Shown here one piece after another: positions 20,935-21,649 of a stretch of DNA of 64,000 nt; within the stretch, counting starts at the first letter, position 1, and the number at the start of each line of letters is the position of its first letter. The stretch spans positions 89,456-153,455 of the forward strand of contig CAVVXH010000004.1 of the NCBI GenBank assembly GCA_963752155.1, written 5' to 3'. This DNA comes from an uncultured Parachlamydiaceae bacterium (lineage in GTDB: Bacteria; Chlamydiota; Chlamydiia; Chlamydiales; Parachlamydiaceae). The notes beneath the pieces were generated by a model. It was not told where the DNA came from, did no database searches, and saw only the letters and a program-made list of their open reading frames with translations. Position numbers and translations under genes: made by a program.

Positions 20935-21070
20935 TGAGTGTAGCCACGTAACCTCTAATTAGTCTAAACCAATTCGTGAAGTCGAAATAACAAAAAAGTT
21001 AGGTGGAAATTTATAAAATCTATCTTCTGGGAATAGTTTAGACTATTTAGAGGCTACGTGGCTGCACTCA
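20935..21070. repeat. Inverted repeat (module G) upstream of GxxExxY
   Basis: tgagtgtagccacgtaacctctaattagtctaaac...gtttagactatttagaggctacgtggctgcactca; one arm recurs at 34324-34370. Confidence 0.75.
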
Positions 21071-21121
21071 ACATCGGAATCATGCTTTTAACTCAATCTT
21101 TTTTTGAATCCTAGAATCAAG

Positions 21122-21188
21122 AGGCACCAATGGCAAGGCGCGAACTTGTTATTTAGGAGAAGCAAGCGAAGGCACAAAGACACAAAGA
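21122..21188. repeat. Family 1 end fragment abutting the GxxExxY start
   Basis: aggcaccaatggcaaggcgcgaacttgttatttaggagaagcaagcgaaggcacaaaga matches the reverse complement of ~50288-50346. Confidence 0.85.
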
Positions 21189-21190
21189 TC

Positions 21191-21649
21191 ATGGAAAATG
21201 AAATTTCTTATAAAGTAATAGGGGCCGCTATTGAGGTTCATCGATTGCTAGGGGGACCAGGACTTCTGGAAAGCATTTACGAGAGTGCTTTATGCCATGA
21301 GCTGACTCTCAATGGATTAAGAATAGAGAGACAAAAACATGTCCCTGTGATATACAAAGGCATAATGATTAGAGAGCCGTATATCTTGGATATACTTGTA
21401 GAGAATAAAGTGATCATCGAGGTAAAGGCCACAGAAAAAGAGCAAGACATACATAAGGCTCAGTTGTTGACATATTTACGCTTGAGCGACATCAAATTGG
21501 GTCTTTTGATTAATTTTGGAAAGAGTGCTGTCAAATTTTTCGGGCAAGAAAGTTTAGCGGAAATTGCTGCTATTGGATCAAACAATGTTTATTCTTCGTC
21601 ACTCCATTCATCAAGCTTGTCTTGCACAAAATTCCAAATGGTTTTTTAA
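21191..21649 (+). CDS. GxxExxY protein (PD-(D/E)xK nuclease-like), C-terminus probably replaced
   Basis: IGAAIEVHR..GPGLLESIYE, DILVENKVIIEVK, AQLLTYL, GLLINFG. Confidence 0.9.
   Translation: MENEISYKVIGAAIEVHRLLGGPGLLESIYESALCHELTLNGLRIERQKHVPVIYKGIMIREPYILDILVENKVIIEVKATEKEQDIHKAQLLTYLRLSDIKLGLLINFGKSAVKFFGQESLAEIAAIGSNNVYSSSLHSSSLSCTKFQMVF

Follow-up and report, generated by a model that had tools for sequence, protein, structure and literature searches.

A truncated GxxExxY nuclease gene probably joined, at its heptad arm, to a gene-less IS110-type mini-element in a Parachlamydiaceae genome

In RAYT-REP/REPIN systems a gene is bracketed by palindromes that are also dispersed alone. It is likewise known that IS110 elements target palindromes and that gene-less modules exist: ISPpu9 of Pseudomonas putida (IS110 group) uses an AG core to recombine within REPs, and a gene-less module is mobilised by it as well (PMC12288879), and IS621 recombines by means of a bridge RNA with target and donor guides (PMC11208160). 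A TIR consensus has been described for TIRYT (PMC3733652, PMC6006769), and MITEs and IS1111 have been described in Coxiella (PMC5896051). The function of the GxxExxY nucleases (PDDEXK_3; TIGR04256, PF13366), on which the literature includes PMC12085832, is given as 'Unknown' in PMC3424549.

Here we describe a GxxExxY locus in a window (the whole analysed stretch of 64,000 nucleotides) of a chlamydial genome, G000 (3.13 Mb in 22 contigs, 80% complete). We consider it probable that the locus is a GxxExxY cassette whose left arm is joined to the right end of a gene-less IS110-type mini-element with TIRYT cargo (an O-j unit), likely by bridge-RNA-guided insertion in trans and later microhomology deletions. 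Like the A'-B' module of ISPpu9/ssr9, the mini-element has an AG core in common with its target, and the target is a dispersed palindrome; the movement of a gene-less module together with a recombinase that has the same ends is a feature of ISPpu9 (PMC12288879). The target is, however, a GxxExxY heptad arm instead of a REP, there are many more gene-less units (53 complete, 112 left ends), and they carry the hairpins of another transposase or their own target in a host in which no recombinase was found. The full-length relatives resemble IS621 in their DEDD and Transposase_20 domains, their non-coding left end with target and donor tracts, their 2-nt core and their repeat targets (PMC11208160, PMC11208158, structure 8wt6), but the protein has 463 aa (IS621: 328 aa), one target guide is assigned, and seven guide variants track seven GxxExxY arm heptads. 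With RAYT-REP/REPIN and the BIME mosaics (PMC2817692) the locus shares the bracketing of a gene by palindromes that are dispersed without it and the composite intergenic mosaics, whereas the bracketed gene encodes a PD-(D/E)XK nuclease and the mosaic was built by at least three systems. The literature searched yielded no description of GxxExxY heptad arms or of an IS110 element aimed at them, though the orthologue and target tables of PMC11208160 may include these elements; the guide tracking of GxxExxY heptads and the link of GxxExxY to heptad arms were likewise not found in these papers.

A truncated nuclease gene in a chain of repeat modules

The module letters B, D and G are those of an earlier note on this DNA, and Y, T, K, J, O, j and U are labels of the present analysis. 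The locus has the following features:

20935-21070, no strand: module G, a long DNA hairpin of a genome-specific repeat family (z -9.96)
21071-21121, + strand: module Y, a 51-nt linker repeat, found at other sites between G (or T/K) and a full B hairpin
21122-21139, + strand: outer end of module B (TIRYT arm), the hairpin breaking off at AGGC(T/A)CCAAT, a microhomology with Y
21140-21159, + strand: linker j, with the IS110-type right end at 21146-21159 and the core AG at 21158-21159
21160-21188, + strand: module D, inner portion of the left GxxExxY arm, from which the outer heptad was apparently split off by insertion
21191-21649, + strand: ORF of the GxxExxY nuclease gene, from profile matches
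21191-21535, + strand: native codons 1-115, with E27, Y30, D67, E77, K79, Q91 and Y95 retained
21536-21649, + strand: foreign tail (codons 116-152 and stop) that replaces the last strand and the right arm and opens with module T
about 21536-21577, + strand: module T, a dispersed repeat, at the start of the tail
22494-23435: gene for a Protochlamydia outer membrane protein, further along the window

The gene is a family member by its TIGR04256 score (142.6 bits, cut-off 35), next to which it matches PF13366 at 134.6 bits, and by its GxxExxY and D..ExK..QxxxY residues, of which E27, Y30, D67, E77 and Q91 are invariant. To call it near-intact, as the earlier note did, is nevertheless an overstatement, since codons 116-152 are foreign. 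The note's suspicion that the right end was lost is borne out: identity to a 3' fragment of the same subtype (C5:188177) breaks off at 21534, and a homolog from the same genus (L004; 86% identity over 114 residues) continues into a normal C-terminus, KEGIYRVVNGLFVEV, behind which the window's D arm recurs inverted. This homolog and the bracketed gene C6:157313 of G000 are complete copies with an inverted D arm downstream, such as the note had proposed to look for. In the structure model of the homolog (pLDDT 95.6) the C-terminal end consists of a helix and a strand (residues 117-121) and has a pLDDT of 91, versus less than 50 for residues 114-128 in the model of the window protein. The strand includes R119, which is nearly invariant among 39 sequences; in the window copy foreign sequence takes its place, and the complete C-terminal strand is absent. 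With the last strand and the right arm lost, the gene is likely a casualty and its protein presumably inactive. It also falls outside the 28 of 2687 ORFs with a bracket score of at least 18, that is, it has no inverted heptad arms on both sides, and a copy that is truncated and unbracketed cannot be the autonomous one.

Strand-transfer enzymes are expected to show an HUH, Tyr or DDE centre. The modelled GxxExxY fold appears to be that of a stand-alone Cas4/restriction-type nuclease without any of these: Foldseek places it nearest to Cas4 SSO0001 (4ic1, E 3.9e-4), and a VIA structure comparison gave restriction-type nucleases at Z 8.4-7.9, with a middling best value (Z 8.4, rmsd 2.9, 98 aligned). 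A search by sequence found no solved structure for the GxxExxY profile. Only PF13366 was matched, and the HUH/Tyr Y1 domain of a RAYT-REPIN transposase is absent.

The earlier note had placed the gene directly behind two repeat modules; the 51-nt Y in fact separates G from the B/D junction. That G is an inverted repeat proved right (0/200 shuffles, 33 clusters in G000), and its assignment to GxxExxY did not hold, as G lies within 260 nt of GxxExxY at 2 of 13 places and BLAST found no match to B, G, O or j in 80 GxxExxY loci from other genomes. Among 40 relatives and 300 phylum genomes there was no family-like match to G (one marginal match per search), and the ORFs beside the 33 clusters, viewed by eye, gave no partner gene; there were 0 viral matches. 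G stands beside the window gene because modules chain, and a G-Y-B chain of the same order occurs at C8:101439. No owner was found in G000 for G, K, T or J. Near a G arm lies a 505-aa ORF (C10:561534-563051) which, by eye, resembles an IS607/IS605 accessory (TnpB-like) gene. Upstream of module G is a broken AAA-ATPase-like gene (PF09820; 20190-20674). The motif at the end of hairpin U (48648-48804 and 9801-9830), CAGCA[AG]TTCCCGC, is shared with module T, which is often found in terminal position.

The joint between G-Y and the B end in the window lies at AGGC(T/A)CCAAT, and the sequence suggests that the B hairpin was deleted at this microhomology. The interval 21122-21322 recurs at 100% identity in a single 210-nt contig from soil run X1, which has a full, canonical B arm where the window has Y, although its depth is 4.9, nine letters are loose and it may stem from another strain. 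The order B-j-D-gene is thereby seen independently, and the G-Y joint is either secondary or an assembly joint. The contig, together with the repeat-rich assembly of G000, could also be read to mean that the IS110 joint is real and that the G-Y/B joint and the T tail were created between repeats by the assembly, the natural gene being whole. We think this very unlikely, because truncated and joined copies are common in G000 and the G-Y/B joint carries a natural microhomology. An empty orthologous site was not found for the locus, the downstream gene being found only in G002, on a short contig.

Heptad arms of GxxExxY genes and hairpins of a TIRYT gene

Module D consists of CGCAAAG/CACAAAG heptads and is the GxxExxY arm. 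As the earlier note had observed, it ends 2 nt ahead of the ATG (cacaaagacacaaaga, 21173-21188), but the 59-nt match in which the note had included this end stops at 21180 and not at 21188; uninvaded D arms read TTAACGCAAAG, directly followed by AAGCAAG. Bracketing was scored (threshold 18) for 73 of 80 related loci, seven having flanks that were too short. Inverted heptad arms bracket GxxExxY in 37 of the 73, versus 0/217 control ORFs and 0/73 shuffle maxima, by which chance adjacency of D is rejected: D arms belong to GxxExxY genes. G000 has 14 TIGR04256 matches at 13 places. Longer bracketed genes are C6:157313, with D-type arms, and C10:276674, with AACGATAAG arms, and there are gene-less, internally deleted derivatives of the cassette, two of which (C4:39446 and C8:109929, of the window's subtype) keep both arms and a few codons. 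The note's picture of an autonomous locus with derivatives therefore stands for D, not for B and G, and not with the truncated, unbracketed window copy as the autonomous member. The window contains one other GxxExxY locus:

9801-10461, + strand: second-subtype GxxExxY locus within AACGATAAG arrays, together with modules T, K and J

It lies in repeat DNA, as the note had stated for both loci, but it is a 3' fragment (10042-10185) with one stop, of a subtype that differs from that of the gene at 21191 and with other arms; CGATAAG is the arm of this second subtype in G000. Hairpins of CACAGAG without a gene (18209-18353 and 59725-59868) represent a third GxxExxY-type arm family, with 22 stand-alone pairs in the genome and no cognate gene seen in G000. 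Elsewhere, G035 has 67 GxxExxY matches, mostly identical 3' fragments plus several full copies, and L099 and L102 show copies or fragments in tandem arrays with heptad arms on each.

Of 2347 ORFs in G000, 323 have at least one module in the 260 nt upstream (G at 15, B at 82, D at 28). Other candidate partners (one GIY-YIG, one DUF559 and one sub-threshold four-helix match) are not among the top bracketed ORFs. The best-bracketed of all 2687 ORFs, with a score of 94, is a Y1 TIRYT gene (C10:596682) with ten B arms around it, on both sides. It has a Y1 domain (PF01797, 52.3 bits), an HTH-like C-terminal part with a weak DnaA match, flanking inverted repeats and an NF047646 match of 71.7 bits (below the cut-off of 80), and thus resembles the TIRYT/TIRtrons of Y1 subclass 2.1, in which a Y1 gene with a weakly DnaA-like C-terminus goes with flanking and dispersed inverted repeats (PMC3733652, PMC6006769). 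In 4 of 18 loci with TIRYT homologs, from four other genomes, the arms match B (TTGGGGTCAGGCCTGACATTC) and fit the published TIR consensus; the GGGGWSAS consensus (GGGGTCAG in TIRYT relatives) occurs in the homologous arms of relatives, from which the G000 arms have drifted. The B arms thus bracket and belong to a Y1 TIRYT gene. The earlier note had counted B as a GxxExxY module and had named an association with Y1 as what would speak against this, and such an association is what we found. What speaks against a strict link is that G001 and G002 contain B doublets while no TIRYT match was found in them. In these doublets (L076-L091) the arms are conserved and the loops and spacers differ copy by copy, and in G002 they are nested inside another hairpin.

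Other than in described TIRYT/TIRtrons, many B hairpins of G000 sit inside IS110 ends: of 232 outer B arms, 101 are continued by O, 54 by j and 14 by Y, and 63 have another or a partial continuation. The idea that B itself is a Y1 insert aimed at CAAAG was dropped because O-j is also found with other cargo and around IS110 genes. B hairpins also lie between three paralogous 700-aa genes (52691-59714), and a second Y1 gene of G000 (C11:40053-41348, L032) has its own tandem REP-like family with 151 module matches genome-wide.

These assignments bear on the view that the GxxExxY nuclease is an autonomous enzyme that mobilises G, B and D, with the window locus as its master copy. The D arms and the deletion derivatives are real, and every joint lies at the end of a GxxExxY heptad, where the nuclease is predicted to be able to nick; yet B and j have other cognate genes, G is seldom near GxxExxY, the window copy is truncated and unbracketed, and the modelled Cas4/restriction-type fold appears to be without a strand-transfer centre, which together make this view highly improbable.

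Ends, landing sites and relatives of the O-j unit

The reading that we prefer, insertion of an IS110-type mini-element into a heptad arm, starts from the B/D junction. As the earlier note had seen, the DNA ahead of the gene matches the junction of an element at 50241-50648 (59 nt, 21122-21180 versus 50287-50345 inverted, at 98%), but this junction, which ends in GTTATTTAGGAG, represents an IS110-family element, of which it forms the right end. Related composites in the window are:

439-833, no strand: further O/B composite
27671-27933, no strand: O-B-O' composite, in which O is an IS110-type left end behind the outer heptad
50239-50648, - strand: gene-less D hairpin (50239-50307) apparently invaded by the same mini-element (j 50308-50327, B-spacer-B' 50326-50625, truncated O 50626-50648)

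The sequence beyond j varies among copies and the joint is always at TTTAGGAG. Within a strict set of 42 inserts with both O and j ends, the flank left of O tracks the partner right of j (10/0 versus 1/22, Fisher p = 1.2e-7, 9 of the 42 being unclassified and omitted), and exactly AG is common to insert and flank in 41 of 42. When the insert is excised in silico, the resulting 32-nt site is found uninterrupted elsewhere in 32 of the 42 cases, a count without shuffled control. The short core common to the target, without longer duplication, is that of IS110, and classical MITEs, with terminal inverted repeats and a target duplication, differ from these units, whose two ends are unlike and which have only AG in common with the flank. 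O lies directly 3' of 83/220 outer and 0/171 inner heptads. A looser count in G000 gives 112 left ends, 93 of them after CGCAAAG (at most one mismatch), 102 right ends and 53 complete units of less than 750 nt, whose cargo includes B in 48 cases, D only in three and neither in two; the 364-nt class is young (median identity 0.967). D hairpins, too, are partly cargo: j is reached by 17/50 flanks of one type and the left-end motif by 17/101 of the other. O-B-O' units with two left ends, 19 of which are listed, are not explained by a single insertion. A reading-frame proof of insertion was tried and given up, as the two inserts in unique DNA interrupt no long frame. Since O or j is near a GxxExxY gene at 1 of 110 loci, namely that of the window, the usual landing site is a gene-less hairpin.

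O matches occur in 14/72 family genomes, and the O motif in 13/301 phylum genomes and in 48 metagenome stretches, several of which look like chance matches in unrelated DNA. O-j units are also present in G001 (99% complete) and G002, and the cargo enclosed by O and j in other genomes is varied and lacks B. G147 has 32 O-motif matches, with CACAAAG heptads next to them in the loci seen (L246, L259, L268, L275), and represents another mini-element burst.

In G252 a 463-aa ORF lies between O and j in five of seven regions, directly after the outer heptad of a hairpin that the remaining two regions have without the gene. The protein scores 65.2 bits for PF01548 and 51.6 bits for PF02371 and matches IS621 (8wt6) at E 1.2e-8, i.e. 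it has the DEDD and Transposase_20 domains of IS110. The right end GTTATTTAGGAG follows the recombinase gene in all 15 IS110 loci checked (five from one genome), with further heptads, by eye, beyond most of them. Judged by sequence, full-length IS110 elements in other chlamydial-type DNA have O as their left end and j as their right end.

Fifteen bridge-like left ends were found, or 14 after removal of one G252 duplicate, and IS110 coding sequence is next in all 14. Behind RCCCG[TG] come 7 nt that are identical to the flanking heptad in 13/14 (8 distinct flanks); a guide-flank shuffle gave a mean of 2.99 and 0/100000, although this test overstates because the 14 elements are kin. As judged from the sequences, this 7-nt tract of the left end changes with the flanking heptad. 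The two bases that come after it are both identical to the beginning of the left end in 11/14 (the first base in 14/14), and may by analogy be compared with the handshake positions of PMC11208158. The right end is matched by a second tract, TTTAGGAG, in 13/14, L211 being off by one base. The fold of 13 left ends shows two-sided change in 11 of 55 pairs, with the guide mostly in an internal loop; the full-length relatives thus have, as IS110 elements do, a structured non-coding end whose tracts correspond to target and donor. For the flank across the core, a variable tract matches only partly (by eye), and Rfam gave sub-threshold chance matches only (6 loci). IS110 relatives occur in 15/72 family genomes, and no IS110 match was found in G001 (99% complete) or G002, nor any IS110 gene or bridge-RNA part in the 80% complete G000, in which the O-j units, lacking a recombinase and bridge RNA of their own, are non-autonomous.

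It is conceivable that the ends are IS110-derived and that the recent spread of B units, the window insertion included, was driven by the resident TIRYT, binding B and cutting between C and T. No intact candidate recombinase other than TIRYT was found in G000, B is part of 48 of the 53 complete units, the 364-nt class is young, and TnpA-REP cleaves between C and T, the reverse of the AG core (PMC8266576). Nevertheless, these ends and this target are also seen where B is absent and the cargo is D, another hairpin or unique DNA, the B doublets of G001 and G002 are without O/j ends, the TIRYT locus itself has neither O nor j, and the cleavage data come from other RAYT groups; we therefore regard a TIRYT-driven spread as unlikely.

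A proposed route and its implications

In the route that we favour, i.e. insertion guided by a bridge RNA, the starting site would be the left heptad arm of a GxxExxY cassette, at whose outer heptad CGCAAAG a bridge-RNA recombinase, acting in trans, is likely to have inserted a gene-less O-j unit. The 7-nt tract would be the target guide and TTTAGGAG the donor guide of the bridge RNA, with recombination at AG, and the predicted target of a G252-type recombinase with the left-end RNA is AACGCAGAG. Since neither recombinase nor bridge part was found in G000, the action in trans is something that we infer: the gene-less units would have been moved by an IS110 recombinase that is now lost or unassembled. 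A match may be needed only in the heptad half of the target; half-match insertion (10.64898/2026.08.31.748434) fits the varied sequence across the core, and a structural gate (10.64898/2026.03.19.712850) may underlie the preference for the outer heptad. Units that carry a D hairpin would seed new landing sites, and microhomology deletions are likely to have then removed most of the insert and the 3' end of the gene. The weakest step is the prediction, which we deem likely, that intact GxxExxY nucleases cut their own arms and that host repair maintains the cassettes.

The guides were ranked on 97 distinct full-length GxxExxY loci out of 126, a sample that is rich in chlamydiae and consists of kin and not of independent loci. 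Among the 1024 NNNNNAG heptamers the seven guides rank 1, 2, 3, 6, 8, 8 and 28 for the bracketing of GxxExxY, and at least one of the seven brackets 53/97 genes; the target hairpin of G252 has no close match to the GxxExxY arms of that genome. The chances seem to us evenly balanced that a chlamydial bridge recombinase clade is specialised on GxxExxY heptads (one 7-nt guide, at least seven heptad families, half a target), its ends serving as a general carrier in a three-tier parasite chain.

The repeat mosaic of G000 (567 clusters, 85 kb of 3.13 Mb) can be explained as nested elements with separate owners, and gene-less GxxExxY-type hairpins need not be spread by the nuclease, as some ride inside IS110 ends. 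In these elements a single recombinase clade occurs naturally with seven target guides, and a compact AG-core donor tolerates cargo of 5 to about 500 nt, by which guide retargeting, half-match insertion and cargo tolerance become directly testable. If the specialisation is real, three tiers (GxxExxY arm, IS110 mini-element and TIRYT hairpin) would build the repeat mosaics of the genome, with gene-less ends that spread the hairpins of other systems along with their own landing sites, and this large nuclease family, its function given as 'Unknown', would have heptad arms old and common enough to attract a specialist parasite.
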